64,000 bases of DNA from Pristiophorus japonicus (taxonomy: Eukaryota), in assembly GCF_044704955.1 (NCBI RefSeq), contig NC_091999.1:44702001-44766000 (forward strand). Reading direction: 5' to 3'. Shown one piece after another: positions 1-45,258 of the stretch (its first letter is position 1; every line of letters begins with the position of its first letter). Below the pieces are notes generated by a model. It was not told the origin of the DNA, did not search any database, and was given only the letters and a program-made list of their open reading frames with translations. Made by a program: the position numbers and the translations under genes.

Positions 1-1595
1 ACACAATAGTGATTCAATAACAAAGTTCGGTTGCACAGTAAGAATTTCATATTAAATTAACAAAATGCAATTTACAACACGGCTTTGAGTTATAATTAAA
101 GACACTGCTAATCATCTCTGTAAACAGGAGGTAACAAGTAACTGAACTCCCGACTCAAACTGAACACACGGTGGAATCAATATGTTGTCAGTGAACTAAT
201 TTCAGGCATAATTAATAATTGTATCCAGCCTCTAAAAGTTTCTGCTCCTCTTAATGGAGCCCAGTGTACTGCAGGATTTTGGAATGCGAATAATATTAAG
301 AAAATTATATTGATATTATAACATATTTTAAGAACATTGGAAGATAGTATCGCATTATAATATTATAATCGGTTTGTTAATAGTAATTTATTTCAGCTAC
401 AACCTGAATAATTGCTAATTATATAGCTGGTAATTACAGTTACGTTTTACTCAGTAAATATCAGCATCGTAAACATAAATTTATAGTTCAATATATAATT
501 ATCACCAATAATTGTTGTGTTAAAATATATTTCAATGATTTCTGATTCCTAAAACCTTCCTGTTCTCTGCCTACAATCTGCTTTCAAACAGTTTCAAACA
601 CATATCTTGTTTGTATTCGATCAGGAACCTGCTGCTGCCCGCTGTCACCGATATTAAACATTGTAGAAACGCCAAATAGTTTCACAAATTTTTGGTATTC
701 TGAATAACAGCGGCACAAACTCTCCTCAGCAGATCAATACTAAATCACATCACTGAGGGGCGGACAGAACCTTTCATGAACAGATCCTTCATTCTCTAAA
801 CCATTTCATCAGAATTAAATGTATCATTGCAAAAAGTCTCTTTACAGAATCACCGAAGCCGCCTAACACTAAAATAACTAATGATTGAATTCAACTGAAA
901 TATAAAATAATGACAGCAGAATTGTGATTTGGTGGATCATGTAAAATACATTAATGTTAATATTATAGCATATTTTAATAATAATGGGTGATATAACTAC
1001 ATCATTATAATGTTAGTAATATTAATTTAAATCAGGTCCATCTGGAATTTAAATCAGGTCCATCTGGAAATGTGTTAATTTTTCAGTCCTTAATTACAGC
1101 AACACTTCACGTATTGAATCTGTGCATTCGGGAACATTCGGTCAGTAGATGACAAATGTAATTTTCACTAAAATCTTTAAATTCCTTAAGAATATATATT
1201 GAGCGCTAAGGTTTCTGTTATGTGTCTAAAATGTTCTTTCAAAAATATTTAAACACAATGTTTGTATTCGATCAGAAAAACTGCAGCAATCATAGGTCAC
1301 CGAGATTAAACATTGCAGAAGTGTCAAACAGTGTAACAACTTTAAAGTATTTAACGTAACTCAAGCACAGAAACTCGTTAGCAGATAAACACCAAATCAC
1401 TTCAACAACAACTTATGTGGAGAAACAGTTGAATTCTATAATCACATTGTAGCAGAATTACATAAAACATTGAAAAACCTCAATAGAGAACCCACCGAAT
1501 CCAAGTTTCAGTGAACGAAATAATTATTAAAATAAAGAGAAATGTAAAATAAAGGCACAAATACAACAGTTGCAGAATGTATGAATGTTCCTTAC
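1..1595 (-). other. IgH J-C intron (AT-rich, with diverged internal repeats)
   Basis: Begins at the J donor; no C exon recognised in the window; ~608-752 resembles ~1259-1404; 22-bp tandem duplication at 1024-1067. Confidence 0.8.
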
Positions 1596-1660
1596 CTGCA
1601 ATCACCGTCACCATGGTCCCTGGTCCCCAGTAGCCCATGGCGTCCCTATTCCCGTGGTCC
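1596..1660 (-). other. IgH D(D)J segment, apparently pre-joined (J reads DAMGYWGPGTMVTVIA, followed by GTAAG donor)
   Basis: - strand: CACTGTG-GGACCACGGGAATAGGGACGCCATGGGCTACTGGGGACCAGGGACCATGGTGACGGTGATTGCAG-gtaagg. WGxG J motif; phase-1 donor at 1595-1591; 28 nt between heptamer and TACTGG. Confidence 0.9.
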
Positions 1661-1688
1661 CACAGTGATAGGAACCCGTACACATATT
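1661..1688 (+). promoter_or_regulatory. Recombination signal sequence, 12-bp spacer (D-type 5' RSS)
   Basis: CACAGTG (1661-1667) + ATAGGAACCCGT (12 nt) + ACACATATT (degenerate nonamer). A 23-nt spacer gives no nonamer-like sequence. Confidence 0.75.
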
Positions 1689-2093
1689 GCATTCAGTCTC
1701 TGCTCAGTACTGATTCTCAACATTCATTCGAAATACACATGCACTTCAAATACAAATTCGCTTCTTATCAAGTTTAGAATTTAGCCAACAGTTTGCAGAA
1801 CAAATAGAAGGAGAACACAGTTCTCACCAGCTCCCTGCAGGTATCGGGCACAGTGAATCGAGCATCATGTCCAGCTCTGCAATTGTTGACACTGTTAACA
1901 TTAAACAGGAGCACAACCGAAACCTCCCTCTGTACATTGGTTAGAGTGTTACATTTTCACCATTGAATTATCAGTGTCTTAGTTTTGTAAGAAGCGGTTT
2001 GTGGTCTGGTTTTGAACACTGCCGTTAACATTGCATTTGACACAATTACTGACCGTCAGGTTATGTTGGAAGTTATTGAATTCCCCCTCGATC

Positions 2094-2132
2094 TGTTCTT
2101 GTACGGGTCCAGCCCTGGTTCCTCTCGCTGTG
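2094..2132 (-). promoter_or_regulatory. VH recombination signal sequence, 23-bp spacer
   Basis: - strand CACAGCG (2132-2126) + 23 nt + ACAAGAACA (2102-2094), directly after YYCARH. Confidence 0.95.
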
Positions 2133-2436
2133 GTGCCTTGCACAGTAATAGATGGCGGTGTCTTCGCTCCGCAGTTTCTTCATGTCCAACGCGAAGATGT
2201 TGCTTGAAGTATCTTTGGACACAGTAAATCGGCCCTCAGTCCCCGGGGTGTAATGCTTGTCCGATGAACTGTAATATCTAATCAGCCACTCCAGCCCCTG
2301 TCCGGGATGTGGCGGACCCAGTACATGTAGCTGCCACCAAGATCTAAGCCGCTGGTTTTACAGGTCAGACTCAGGGAGCCCCCGGGAATCCTGGTCTCTG
2401 CCTCGGGCTGAGTCAACACCATATCCGACTGGACAC
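2133..2436 (-). pseudogene. IGHV: Shark IgM-type VH exon with 1-nt frameshift in FR2
   Basis: Acceptor ttctacag, then [42 protein letters not shown], one base missing near 2307 (TGA at 2284-2282). Restored frame: [58 protein letters not shown]. Both Cys and the FR2 Trp are present. Confidence 0.93.
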
Positions 2437-2561
2437 CTGTAGAAATAATCAAAAACCCCGAGGATCAATCCTGGTGAAATGATTCCTAATTCTGTAACAT
2501 TCCAGAGAGACTAACACTGAGACAGGAACAGTGAAAGACTTGGACAATAAAAACTACTCAC

Positions 2562-2607
2562 GGGAAAAGAAAGCCAGCAACAGACTGAGAGAAATAGCCG
2601 ACCTCAT
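2562..2607 (-). CDS. IGHV: IgH V leader exon (MRSAISLSLLLAFFS)
   Basis: 46-nt exon, ATG at 2607, phase-1 GTGAGT donor at 2561, 125-nt intron to the V exon; hydrophobic signal peptide. Confidence 0.95.
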
Positions 2608-2697
2608 CCTCCTGGCAATGTGTGGTGAATGGTTTCGGCAAGAACTCACTGGGCAAACGCACTCCCAGACTGTTGTATTGCGGTCCCAGTGACCGGC

Positions 2698-2782
2698 AGT
2701 TAAATTCCCGGGAGGTGGGGGCGAGGTTACAGGCGCCGCCCGTTGATTCCCTGATAGAGGCGGCTTCTGGGTCCACGTCACT
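2698..2782 (-). promoter_or_regulatory. VH promoter: CRE-like decamer AGTGACGTGG (2782-2773) and TATA-like ATTTAA (~2700)
   Basis: Decamer ~165 bp upstream of ATG; no ATGCAAAT octamer seen nearby. Fits the established octamer-less, TCR-Vbeta-like decamer promoter of shark IgH. Confidence 0.6.
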
Positions 2783-4324
2783 CCTTCCACATCACCAACA
2801 GAATGGACTCACATCTGGACTCTAAATAAAATCCATTTATTTCCTCACTGCTTCACAGGGTCGTGAATCTCTGAGATTGAATTACATTATTAGGTTCTAA
2901 AGACACGGCCAGTTTATGTTTCTCCATCTCCTGCTATCTATCCATGCATCTGTACCAATAAAGTATCCCCTATAATCTGAATTATTATCACTCTATGTAA
3001 CCGAGTGCGGGAGATGGGTAATGTGATTCTATTTACGGTGCACTTGGCTAAACCGACACACTTTTGGTCTGGAGATGAGATCATACTTCTCACATTATAC
3101 AATTTATTCTCATTGCATTTCACTAACTGCCCGTTAGTCTGCGAACCCCAGACAGTCCTTTATAAAATTAGCTGTAAAATGAGTCCGCTTGCCTGATCAC
3201 TAACCACAGCAGTTGAAGGAGACACATAAGAAAGGTGTGCCCGCCCTCTTCAGACCAGTGTTTTATGAGAGAAACTTGTGAATCAGAACCGATAATGTGA
3301 TCAGCAAACCTCGACATCCAAACCCTTGCAGCTAACTTTAATAGCGACCGAATGTGTAACAGACACGGGTAACAGGAACACGGTGTATCAGGACATAGCG
3401 GTAAGTTACAGAATATCACAGGAACAAATGCTTCATCTCCAGCAGAAACAGATCACAATCTGGGCATTTCACAACCCAATGGTAGCCGGGCTATGAGAGG
3501 GGTTGTTGAGGGATCCAAATCAGCTCAAATTACACCGCACACTGCGCGGCTACTAATCAGGAATAATGGAGACATTAGTTTAGACCAGGCGCAGAATTCT
3601 GTGAGAATATTAAAGAAGTGCAGCTGGCACTTCTCTGTGAGAATATTCAAGGCAATTCAATCTGTTTTAATTACTTTGCGAATCTCACTCATCCCTCTAC
3701 AGTGTAGGGTGGGGCCATTAAACCTCACTCCAGTACTTCATGCTGTACTGATTAACGGGACTGGATGTCTAGAATGGTCTTTATTTGGAAATAGTTTACA
3801 TTCGATACCGTGTGGATCAATTCATTATTTTCCAATCCTATTTTATAATATGGTGAGCATGAAATTTACGGACAATCATTCTTGAGATGTTATACCATGT
3901 AAAATGTTTCTTGTTTTAAAAGTGCTACTGAATAATTTAATGTTCAAACAGTTAAATATCATCTTTCTCCCATTCTTGTTCACGCTAATCTGAACCACAC
4001 AACTTTTGGCAGTAACCCAACCGACTGCCGTCAGCGAGCATCGAATACCAGTGTCATTTACATGAAGCATGTGGGGTTCTGTGCAGTCCATCAAAGGTCT
4101 GTTTTCTCACTACTGACCGCATACCTGGAAGCCAACTTTAAAACGTTTACATTATCAAAATACACATTTTTATACACATCTACCCAGTAACAGTACTGGA
4201 GTTAAGTTTAATTTTTTTCGACATGTAAATGTGTGTAACTGTTCCCATATCCCAGGAAAGGAAATATATCCAATGTCTCAGATACAATGTCGGTAGTGGC
4301 AGTCAGCTGGAGTATCAGTACCGC

Positions 4325-41246: not shown

Positions 41247-41326
41247 AGTTTTTCTTTTTCTTCTTATATTGGTCAGTAACTTTTAACATTGTTATTACCA
41301 GTTTAAGTGTATCTAAGGGTTAAGAC

Positions 41327-42274
41327 ATGGCAGGAGAGCTCGGTCGGGTGTTATGCTCCTCCTGTACCATGTGGGAACTCAGGGACGCTTCCGGTGTCCC
41401 TGACGACTATGTGTGCGGGAAGTGTATCCGCCTCCAGCTCCTGACGGACCGCGTTACGGAATTGGAGCTGAGGGTGGATTTACTCTGGAGCATCCACGAT
41501 GCTGAGAATGACGTGAGTATCACGTGTAGTGAGTTGGTCTTACCGCAGGGAAAGGGTCCACAGCCAGATAGGGAATGGAAGACCAGCAGGAAGAGTAGAG
41601 CAAGGAAGGTAGTGCAGGGGTCCCCTGCGGTCATCCCCCTGCAAAACAGATACACCGCTTTGGGTACTGTTGAGGGGAATGACTCATCAGGGGAGGGCAG
41701 CAGCAGCCAAGTTCATGGCACCGTGGCTGGCTCTGCTGCACAGGAGGGCAAGAAAAAGAGTGGGAGAGCGATAGTGATAGGGGATTCAATTGTGAGGGGA
41801 ATAGATAGGCGTTTCTGCGGCCGCAACCGAGACTCCAGGATGGTATGTTGCCTCCCTGGTGCAAGGGTCAAGGATGTCTCGGAGCGGGTGCAGGACATTC
41901 TGAAATGGGAGGGAGAACAGCCAGTTGTCGTGGTGCACATTGGTACCAACGACATAGGCAAAAAAAGGGATGAGGTCCTACGAAACGGATTTAAGGAGCT
42001 AGGAGCTAAATTAAAAAGTAGGACCTCAAAAGTAGTAATCTCGGGATTGCTACCAGTGCCACGTGATAGTCAGAGTAGGAATCGCAGGATAGCGCAGATG
42101 AATACGTGGCTTGAGCAGTGGTGCAGCAGGGAGGGATTCAAATTCCTGGGGCATTGGGACCGGTTCTGGGGGAGGTGGGACCAGTACAAACCGGACGGTC
42201 TGCACCTGGGCAGGACTGGAACCAATGTCCTAGGGGGAGTGTTTGCTAGTGCTGTTGGGGAGGATTTAAACTAA
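41327..42274 (+). CDS. CR1 ORF1p: zinc-finger/leucine-zipper + SGNH esterase
   Basis: CxxC...CxxC (CSSC, CGKC); GDSIVRG, LPGA, HIGTND, DGLHL. Confidence 0.95.
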   Translation: MAGELGRVLCSSCTMWELRDASGVPDDYVCGKCIRLQLLTDRVTELELRVDLLWSIHDAENDVSITCSELVLPQGKGPQPDREWKTSRKSRARKVVQGSPAVIPLQNRYTALGTVEGNDSSGEGSSSQVHGTVAGSAAQEGKKKSGRAIVIGDSIVRGIDRRFCGRNRDSRMVCCLPGARVKDVSERVQDILKWEGEQPVVVVHIGTNDIGKKRDEVLRNGFKELGAKLKSRTSKVVISGLLPVPRDSQSRNRRIAQMNTWLEQWCSREGFKFLGHWDRFWGRWDQYKPDGLHLGRTGTNVLGGVFASAVGEDLN

Positions 42275-42351
42275 TATGGCAGGGGGATGGGAACCAATGC
42301 AGGGAGACAGAGGGAAACAAAAAGGAGCCAAAAGCAAAAGACAGAAAGGAG

Positions 42352-45258
42352 ATGAGGAAAAGTGTAGGGCAGAGAAACCCAAGGCAAAGAACAAAAAGGG
42401 CCACTGTACAGCAAAATTCTAAAAGGACAAAGGGTGTTAATAAAACAAGCCTGAAGGCTTTGTGTCTTAATGCAAGGAGTATCCGCAATAAGGTGGATGA
42501 ATTAATTGTGCAAATAGATGTTAACAAATATGATGTGATTGGGATTACGGAGACGTGGCTCCAGGATGATCAGGGCTGGGAACTCAACATTCAGGGGTAT
42601 TCAACATTCAGGAAGGATAGAATAAAAGGAAAAGGAGGTGGGGTAGCATTGCTGGTTAAAGAGGAGATTAATGCAATAGTTAGGAAAGACATTAGCTTGG
42701 ATGATGTGGAATCTATATGGGTAGAGCTGCAGAACACCAAAGGGCAAAAAACGTTAGTAGGAGTTGTGTACAGACCTCCAAACAGTAATAGGGATGTTGG
42801 GGAGGGCATCAAACAGGAAATTAGGGGTGCATGCAATAAAGGTGTAGCAGTTATAATGGGTGACTTTAATATGCACATAGATTGGGCTAGCCAAACTGGA
42901 AGCAATACGGTGGAGGAGGATTTCCTGGAGTGCATAAGGGATGGTTTTCTAGACCAATATGTTGAGGAACCAACTAGGGGGGAGGACATCTTAGACTGGG
43001 TGTTGTGTAATGAGAGAGGATTAATTAGCAATCTCATTGTGCGAGGCCCCTTGGGGAAGAGTGACCATAATATGGTGGAATTCTGCATTAGGATGGAGAA
43101 TGAAACAGTAATTTCAGAGACCATGGTCCAGAACTTAAAGAAGGGTAACTTTGAAGGTATGAGGCGTGAATTGGCTAGGATAGATTGGCGAATGATACTT
43201 AGGGGGTTGACTGTGGATGGGCAATGGCAGACATTTAGAGACCGCATGGATGAAGTACAACAATTGTACATTCCTGTCTGGCGTAAAAATAAAAAGGGGA
43301 AGGTGGCTCAACCGTGGCTATCTAGGGAAATCAGGGATAGTATTAAAGCCAAGGAAGTGGCATACAAATTGGCCAGAAATAGCAGCACACCTGGGGACTG
43401 GGAAATATTTAGAACTCAGCAGAGGAGGACAAAGGGTTTGATTAGGACAGGGAAAATGGAGTACGAGAAGAAGCTTGCAGGGAACATTAAGGCGGATTGC
43501 AAAAGTTTCTATAGGTATGTAAAGAGAAAAAGGTTGGTGAAGACAAACGTAGGTCCACTGCAGTCAGAATCAGGGGAAGTCATAACGGGGAACAAAGAAA
43601 TGGCGGATCAATTGAACAAGTACTTTGGTTCGGTATTCACTAAGGAGGATACAAACAACCTTCCGGATATAAAAGGGGTCAGAGGGTCTAGTAAGGAAGA
43701 GGAACTGAGGGAAATCTTTATTAGTCGGGAAATTGTGTTGGGGAAATTGATGGGATTGAAGGCAGATAAATCCCCAGGGCCTGATGGCCTGCATCCTAGA
43801 GTACTTAAGGAGGTGGCCTTGGAAATAGCGGATGCATTGACAGTCATTTTCCAACATTCCATTGACTCTGGATCAGTTCCTATGGAGTGGAGGGTAGCCA
43901 ATGTAACCCCACTTTTTAAAAAAGGAGGGAGAGAGAAAACAGGGAATTATAGACCGGTCAGCCTGACCTCAGTAGTGGGTAAAATGATGGAATCAATTAT
44001 TAAGGATGTCATAGCAGTGCATCTGGAAAATGGTGACATGATAGGTCCAAGTCAGCATGGATTTGTGAAAGGGAAATCATGCTTGACAAATCTTCTGGAA
44101 TTTTTTGAGGATGTTTCCAGTAAAGTGGACAAAGGAGAACCAGTTGATGTGGTATATTTGGACTTTCAGAAGGCTTTCGACAAGGTCCCACACAAGAGAT
44201 TAATGTGCAAAGTTAAAGCACATGGGATTGGGGGTAGTGTGCTGACGTGGATTGAGAACTGGTTGTCAGTCAGGAAGCAAAGAGTAGGAGTAAACGGGTA
44301 CTTTTCAGAATGGCAGGCAGTGACTAGTGGAGTGCCGCAAGGTTCTGTGCTGGGGCCCCAGCTGTTTACATTGTACATTAATGATTTAGACGATGGGATT
44401 AAATGCAGTATCTCCAAATTTGCGGATGATACTAAGTTGGGTGGCAGTGTGAGCTGCGAGGAGGATGCTATTCGGCTGCAGAGTGACTTGGATAGGTTAG
44501 GTGAGTGGGCAAATGCATGGCAGATGAAGTATAATGTGGATAAATGTGAGGTTATCCACTTTGGTGGTAAAAACAGAGAGACAGACTATTATCTGAATGG
44601 TGACAGATTAGGAAAAGGGAAGGTGCAACGAGACCTGGGTGTCATGGTACATCAGTCATTGAAGGTTGGCATGCAGGTACAGCAGGCGGTTAAGAAAGCA
44701 AATGGCATGTTGGCCTTCATAGCGAGGGGATTTGAATACAGGGGCAGGGAGGTGTTGCTACAGTTGTACAGGGCCTTGGTGAGGCCACACCTGGAGTATT
44801 GTGTACAGTTTTGGTCTCCTAACTTGAGGAAGGACATTCTTGCTATTGAGGGAGTGCAGCGAAGGTTCACCAGACTGATTCCCGGGATGGCGGGACTGAC
44901 CTATCAAGAAAGATTGGATCAATTGGGCTTGTATTCACTGGAGTTCAGAAGAATGAGAGGGGACCTCATAGAAACGTTTAAAATTCTGACGGGTTTAGAC
45001 AGGTTAGATGCAGAAAGAATGTTCCCAATGTTGGGGAAGTCCAGAACCAGGGGTCACAGTCTGAGGATAAGGGGTAAGCCATTTAGGACCGAGATGAGGA
45101 GAAACTTCTTCACCCAGAGAGTGGTGAACCTGTGGAATTCTCTACCACAGAAAGTAGTTGAGGCCAATTCACTAAATATATTCAAAAGGGAGTTAGATGA
45201 AGTCCTTACTACTCGGGGGATCAAGGGTTATGGCGAGAAAGCAGGAAGCGGGTACTGA
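42352..45258 (+). CDS. CR1 ORF2p: AP endonuclease + reverse transcriptase
   Basis: 968 aa open; LNARS, ITETW, VYRPP, GDFN, SDH; NYRPVSLTS, GVPQGSVLGP, FADD. Confidence 0.97.
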   Translation: MRKSVGQRNPRQRTKRATVQQNSKRTKGVNKTSLKALCLNARSIRNKVDELIVQIDVNKYDVIGITETWLQDDQGWELNIQGYSTFRKDRIKGKGGGVALLVKEEINAIVRKDISLDDVESIWVELQNTKGQKTLVGVVYRPPNSNRDVGEGIKQEIRGACNKGVAVIMGDFNMHIDWASQTGSNTVEEDFLECIRDGFLDQYVEEPTRGEDILDWVLCNERGLISNLIVRGPLGKSDHNMVEFCIRMENETVISETMVQNLKKGNFEGMRRELARIDWRMILRGLTVDGQWQTFRDRMDEVQQLYIPVWRKNKKGKVAQPWLSREIRDSIKAKEVAYKLARNSSTPGDWEIFRTQQRRTKGLIRTGKMEYEKKLAGNIKADCKSFYRYVKRKRLVKTNVGPLQSESGEVITGNKEMADQLNKYFGSVFTKEDTNNLPDIKGVRGSSKEEELREIFISREIVLGKLMGLKADKSPGPDGLHPRVLKEVALEIADALTVIFQHSIDSGSVPMEWRVANVTPLFKKGGREKTGNYRPVSLTSVVGKMMESIIKDVIAVHLENGDMIGPSQHGFVKGKSCLTNLLEFFEDVSSKVDKGEPVDVVYLDFQKAFDKVPHKRLMCKVKAHGIGGSVLTWIENWLSVRKQRVGVNGYFSEWQAVTSGVPQGSVLGPQLFTLYINDLDDGIKCSISKFADDTKLGGSVSCEEDAIRLQSDLDRLGEWANAWQMKYNVDKCEVIHFGGKNRETDYYLNGDRLGKGKVQRDLGVMVHQSLKVGMQVQQAVKKANGMLAFIARGFEYRGREVLLQLYRALVRPHLEYCVQFWSPNLRKDILAIEGVQRRFTRLIPGMAGLTYQERLDQLGLYSLEFRRMRGDLIETFKILTGLDRLDAERMFPMLGKSRTRGHSLRIRGKPFRTEMRRNFFTQRVVNLWNSLPQKVVEANSLNIFKRELDEVLTTRGIKGYGEKAGSGY

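Follow-up and report, generated by a model that had tools for sequence, protein, structure and literature searches.

A putative germline D-J join with V left free in an IgM minicluster of Pristiophorus japonicus

Shark heavy-chain clusters joined in the germline have been known since the late 1980s, and the order and number of the events behind them have been hard to work out. When germline-joined immunoglobulin clusters are expressed, it is often in pups. A change of RSS class by J in the germline has long been proposed as a route by which antigen-receptor loci are reshaped. The closest described systems are the IgM clusters of horn shark and little skate, for which Lewis and Wu (2000; PMC2193153) described germline VDD-J, VDJ and VD1-D2J forms, as well as a horn shark cluster in which a germline hybrid joint had swapped RSSs, with an inversion between D1 and D2; germline VD-J, VD-DJ and VDJ clusters are also reported in PMC5192425 and PMC4279169. 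In nurse shark lymphocytes, V-DDJ and V-D-DJ occur as somatic intermediates; the order of joining is not fixed, and one subfamily shows V-DDJ prominently (Malecek et al. 2008; PMC2435157). For the nurse shark NS4 (kappa) genes, Lee et al. (2000; PMC2193156) placed related joined and split genes in a tree with several independent germline joins; the same authors found heavy-chain joining events hard to dissect and noted that no expression of joined heavy chains had been detected in horn shark. In literature searches that also covered PMC12227049 and PMC2191167, no germline V-DJ or V-DDJ cluster of an elasmobranch was found named, which is a weak negative as the older primary papers are sparsely covered.

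The cluster described here lies in a stretch of 64,000 nucleotides of Pristiophorus japonicus (GCF_044704955.1, NC_091999.1, positions 44,702,001 to 44,766,000), hereafter the window, and belongs to an expanded family that we call family A. As in the partly joined IgM clusters of horn shark and little skate, apparently inherited joins are found inside a V-D-J-Cmu minicluster and are mixed with open clusters. However, V is joined in all of the forms described in the consulted parts of PMC2193153 and PMC5192425, whereas in the window V is free and the join lies on the D-J side only; moreover, D2 is erased across the whole of the expanded family. The nurse shark V-DDJ and V-D-DJ intermediates show the same configurations but are somatic and come with open germline genes, while those of family A appear to be inherited and amplified. 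NS4 is a light chain with complete VJ joins, whereas family A is a heavy-chain family whose joins can be dissected. We consider it very probable that the window holds an IgM minicluster in which D1 has been fused to J with V left free, that it arose by two RAG joins in succession in the germ cells of ancestors and was then spread by large segmental duplications, and that the window copy is broken as assembled while its intact sisters would be one V-to-DJ join from a finished gene.

The whole minicluster lies on the minus strand of the window. Its leader exon (2562..2607, MRSAISLSLLLAFFS) has an ATG at 2607 and a GT donor at 2561; a motif scan placed a CRE-like hexamer, a possible promoter element, 5′ of the leader at 2775..2780 and found no octamer in 2609-3300. 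There follows a VH exon of IgM type (2133..2436) with a 23-RSS, as in an elasmobranch IgM minicluster, which in the window copy as assembled has a 1-nt deletion near 2306 that shifts the frame in FR2; the V of a sister copy (L002) gives a Pfam V-set match at 1e-15. The 23-spacer RSS of V (2094..2132) consists of a heptamer at 2132-2126, a 23-nt spacer and a nonamer at 2102-2094, and its heptamer and nonamer are identical to those of seven of the nine open clusters of the family. Next come a 405-bp spacer (1689..2093), homologous to the V-D1 spacer of open clusters, and the 5′ 12-spacer RSS of D1 (1661..1688; nonamer 1688-1680, heptamer 1667-1661). From the V heptamer to the D heptamer, spacer and two RSSs included, identity to the five open clusters compared is 86-89%. 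The heptamer of the 12-RSS is perfect; its nonamer carries two changes beyond the usual family version and has four mismatches to the consensus, against two in most open clusters. A 65-nt segment (1660-1596, DHGNRDAMGYWGPGTMVTVIA) adjoins this RSS and ends at a GT donor; it reads DHGNRDAMGY-WGPGTMVTVIA, and its J Trp codon is preceded by 31 nt (28 nt precede YW).

An earlier note on this DNA, made from the letters alone, had described this same order of V with its 23-RSS, 405 bp, a 12-RSS and a 65-nt segment running into J, and its coordinates and counts proved correct. It had also seen neither a separate D1 or D2 nor a 23-RSS at J, with which a relaxed scan of positions 1-3000 agrees, as nothing else between V and J passed as a convincing RSS. 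Near 1850 there is a word resembling a heptamer, rejected as an RSS because it has no nonamer and belongs to the shared spacer. The V frameshift, the TM-exon stop and the extra mismatches in the 12-RSS nonamer are additions to what the note had described. The combination of two free D segments and a J with a 23-RSS, as in a canonical open cluster, is absent both from the window cluster and from all 66 core family clusters classified. Elsewhere in the window, 41324-45255 on the plus strand is a LINE-type retrotransposon whose ORF1 is esterase-like and whose endonuclease/RT frame is open for 1002 aa, and further copies related to it are present.

Cmu1-4, the secretory tail and the TM exon lie a few kb after J on the minus strand, beyond the window's left edge (G000:C23:44696812-44687044). 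The Cmu1-4 exons and the secretory tail are open, with AG/GT exon edges; the TM exon contains a stop that is found in neither L002 nor L017. A protein search with Cmu3 returned nine proteins; all that bear an informative name are IgM or Ig heavy chains of sharks, at up to 75% identity. We take the gene to be an elasmobranch IgM minicluster because it has Cmu1-4, secretory tail and TM exons and its Cmu3 relatives are shark IgM.

Searches of the assembly by DNA, pattern and protein gave 96 V/J loci, 87 of them classified; these counts are lower bounds, as the best candidates alone were scored, and some of the 150 scored Cmu3 matches have no traced V and J. Nine loci lie outside the 87, namely L072, L089 and L090 together with L085, L087, L088, L091, L093 and L094; the latter six resemble IgH V segments, each carrying a clean 23-RSS but lacking D and J within 2.5 kb, and are possibly used with T-cell-receptor loci. 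Many Cmu3 matches without a traced V or J lie at 13.9-66.7 Mb of contig C23, and may be orphan or truncated C clusters. Family A comprises 73 loci, mostly on C23, as nine open V-D-J, 20 V-DJ, 34 VD-J and 10 VDJ clusters. Seven of the VDJ clusters (L057, L065-L067, L069, L070, L092) form a separate basal lineage with a common 12-codon CDR3 type. In RSS layout, the 34 VD-J clusters match the VD1-D2J form of PMC2193153. A VD-J locus found later, L111, is an addition to family A beyond the 87; with it there are 35 VD-joined clusters (L030, L038-L056, L060-L063, L068, L095-L103, L111) in two junction lineages, and of the 34 scored, 25 have broken V frames in one amplified clade and nine are open. 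Family B has 14 loci: 11 are canonical (V23-12D1 22-12D2 12-23J), two are germline V-DD-J clusters with differing D-D junctions (L071, L081) and one is V-DDJ (L086), an independent V-free join.

Open clusters of family A have the layout V23-12D22-12J, which would resemble the RSS layout of T-cell receptor beta/delta loci. The nine of them (L017-L022, L027-L029), on C23, have a 12-RSS J and V frames that are all open, and their V could in principle join J directly, with D skipped. Throughout the family, J lies behind D2's former 12-RSS in 43 of the 43 classified clusters with a free J. The family A D-J spacer aligns end to end with the family B D1-D2 spacer, through the 5′ heptamer of D2 (score 193; best of 200 shuffles 35), whereas against the family B D2-J spacer there is no alignment (score 26, shuffle mean 26). 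Intact D2 segments are confined to family B (12 of the 12 found, none on C23), and each of the 44 D2-type flanks in family A maps to a cluster where J comes next. J in family A carries D2's old 12-RSS, because the spacers are homologous and the D2-type flanks all lead into J. The free J has 14 nt before Trp in 12 of 43 clusters, as in the 23-RSS J of family B, and two extra in 31; the heptamer before it has one change in nine of 43. A contig from run X6, a different sample, also has J behind a D2-type 12-RSS, so the family layout extends beyond one sample.

In the first of the two proposed joins, the family ancestor would have lost D2, the D2-J spacer and the 23-RSS of J, which would place D2's upstream 12-RSS directly before J, with zero to two extra bases, and yield V23-12D22-12J; the homology is observed, whereas the mechanism is our proposal. 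A D2-J coding joint trimmed almost to nothing and a hybrid joint would fit equally well as the origin of the 12-RSS J. There is a likeness to the RSS swap of horn shark (PMC2193153) in that a segment gains an RSS of the other spacer class by germline recombination; however, the horn shark case is an inversion, whereas the J of family A would have gained D2's 12-RSS by deletion, for which a heavily trimmed coding joint is an equally good explanation. No unjoined family A member with D2 or a 23-RSS J is among the loci found, and the D2-loss step rests on comparison with a distant family. The immediate precursor of the window cluster was a one-D cluster whose J already had D2's 12-RSS. The missing 23-RSS of J is an older trait and not a mark of the window join, because the J of the whole family sits behind D2's 12-RSS.

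The junction itself can be divided into D1 and J. Its first 13 nt (1648..1660) match paralogous D1 at 11 positions, equalled by 6 of 100,000 shuffles. The JH segment (1596..1643, reading WGPGTMVTVIA, GT donor at 1595) has, like free J, 14 nt ahead of its Trp codon, and these match paralogous J starts at 12-13 of 14 positions, 12 being reached by 1 of 100,000 shuffles. Between the two lie four ambiguous bases (1644..1647), either a mutated 3′ end of D1 or N bases. The 31 nt before Trp are accounted for by D1 (13–17 nt) and a full-length J start (14 nt), and 17 + 14 fills them exactly. D2 bases are not detectable in the junction, where the longest D2 match is 4 nt, a length reached by 60,300 of 100,000 shuffles. 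Alignment to paralogous open clusters, which had been suggested as a way of assigning D1, D2, N and J bases, thus settled D1 and J and yielded no D2, with four bases remaining ambiguous. It is very unlikely that a canonical V-D1-D2-J cluster joined D1, D2 and J within this lineage and left D2 bases in the fixed CDR3. The end state would be the same V-DDJ, of which L086 is an example in the canonical family, and the four bases assigned to neither D1 nor J could be counted for it; however, D1 and J together fill the interval, the D2 match is at chance level, no family member was found with D2 or a 23-RSS J, and the V-DJ clades are nested among one-D clusters in the trees.

The window V-to-J distance is 383-398 bp shorter than in the five open clusters, which is the length of the D-J spacer with its two RSSs. 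Both breakpoints lie within about 4 nt of the coding ends, the spacer and both inner RSSs having been removed, and breakpoints at both coding ends point to RAG as the likely maker of the D1-J fusion. In two other junction types, 2 bases form a palindrome with the D1 end (read by eye); apart from its four ambiguous bases, the window junction contains no unambiguous N or P bases. In the second proposed join, the 22-RSS of D1 would have been joined to the 12-RSS of J, deleting ~385-400 bp with little or no trimming; the junction is observed and RAG is the agent we infer. That an ordinary deletion, by microhomology repair or unequal crossing-over, fused D to J is very unlikely: segmental duplication is abundant in the region and clear N or P bases are lacking, but both ends fall ~4 nt or less from coding ends with both inner RSSs gone, the same kind of join recurs in four sequence types of family A and in one cluster of family B, and there are V-D and V-D-J joins as well. 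The earlier note had proposed a germline RAG event that fused D1, perhaps with D2, to J and left V free; the fusion is real, apparently inherited and likely RAG-made, whereas the D2 part is not supported.

The D-J fusion of the window is one of several. The 20 V-DJ clusters fall into four junction types, of 9, 7, 3 and 1 copies. Constraining them to one clade, on a tree of 29 loci with V and D unjoined and with the junction columns left out, was 58 log-likelihood units worse and was rejected (AU p=1.15e-5). Because the V-DJ clusters are rejected as one clade, D-J joining appears to have been repeated, with at least two and probably up to four joins in family A and one more in family B. This count of independent joins could be too high if clusters have undergone gene conversion, and the trees disagree on where the L010-L016 clade belongs. 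All five D-J junction types (four of family A, one of family B) have D in one and the same frame, for which the chance probability is about 1 in 27 with three independent events; this is suggestive only. One further locus, L064 (G000:C1467), carries an in-frame, fully joined VDJ with a CDR3 resembling the L023-L025 D-J junction, and is possibly a former V-DJ cluster whose joining was completed in the germline. A clade of L064 with L023-L025 was neither recovered nor rejected (AU p=0.44) in a tree of 41 of the 87 rows that was without open clusters and others with short flanks.

The junction type of the window is found in nine clusters spread from 15 to 57 Mb of the 68-Mb contig C23, which share 93-99.7% identity over 3-4 kb and are set apart across tens of kb by insertions and point changes. 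The window cluster and L002 are 99.0% identical across 20 kb downstream, and seven blocks sampled further upstream in L002 and L003 all have their match in the window, in the same order (91-99%), which would make the unit of segmental duplication roughly 80 kb. The D-J join is, on this comparison of copies, inherited and not somatic, because nine diverged copies in segmental duplications carry the same junction; duplication of the V-DJ cluster to nine copies is the third, and observed, step. Positions 1593-1709 are spanned by two contigs of DNA run X4, which show 2 and 6 differences and have depths of 26.5 and 9.1; by our own count they are the L003-L008 and L009 alleles. X4 is one sample, possibly that of the assembly; of two runs from other samples, X5 gave no contigs and X6 five, none of them across the D-J junction, which has no bearing either way. 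A somatic lymphocyte intermediate or a misassembly is highly improbable. In nurse shark thymocytes V-DDJ does occur as a somatic intermediate (PMC2435157), but nine copies at separate places share the junction and yet have diverged over tens of kb, and contigs of the DNA run bridge sister alleles of the junction. Least credible is that the segment is a long J by nature, with a 12-RSS of its own, in a light-chain-like V-J cluster without any join, which the 12-RSS of free family A J and the presence of the long segment in nine clusters might suggest; it is contradicted, since the upstream flank is the V-D1 spacer with the D1 RSS and not that of a free J, the first 13 nt are D1, and free J has only 14-16 nt before Trp.

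Within the nine copies, the CDR3 end reads DHGNKDAMGY in seven and, as in the window, DHGNRDAMGY in two. Under the favoured history of two germline joins and duplication, B cells would join V23 to the D 12-RSS. Diversity would then arise at a single junction, roughly a third of the joins would be in frame, and the CDR3 would have the fixed end DHGN(K/R)DAMGY. The window copy as assembled has two faults, the V frameshift and the TM-exon stop. The frameshift could be an assembly error; among the contigs listed for X4 and X6, none has the window's short V allele. Decay of the window copy is indicated independently by the TM stop and by the weaker nonamer; the copy is probably a pseudogene and would have gained all three defects later. 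Among its eight sisters the V frame is open in all, the heptamer is intact in seven (broken in L009), and one has a changed V nonamer. A single V-to-DJ join is thus predicted to complete most sister copies, and the claim that one 12/23 step would finish the gene holds for them as a prediction, whereas it fails for the window copy, with its frameshift and stop.

Across the family, V frames are open in 16 of 20 V-DJ, nine of nine open and nine of 34 VD-J clusters; the V-frame script left two V-DJ clusters unscored, and one stop was seen in each of these separately. A 12-RSS nonamer other than the usual version is found in 17 of the 20 V-DJ clusters and in three of the nine open clusters, and the weakening is thus commoner among the V-DJ clusters. 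V pN/pS is ~1 in all between-group comparisons, open clusters included, and no selection for function is visible in them. A bolder reading, which we offer tentatively and consider doubtful, is that RAG acting in the germline rewired a whole IgM family, which went from two D segments to a single one as D2's 12-RSS was brought to J, and then struck the family recurrently, and that the amplified V-DJ clades are a selected, half-hard-wired repertoire with one somatic join, a fixed CDR3 end and D in a common Gly/Tyr/Ser-rich frame in all five junction types.

The V-free D-J form would add to the known germline-joined shark IgH clusters. Its interest lies in the history of the family and in the CDR3 tag, not in the window copy itself. 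Open, VD-J, V-DJ and VDJ clusters of one close family, together with a canonical outgroup, would allow successive germline RAG steps to be ordered on a tree, and the family offers a candidate case of a J segment switching RSS class in the germline. Moreover, the fixed CDR3 end would provide a ready tag for whether partly joined clusters are used, which has been doubted in earlier work.
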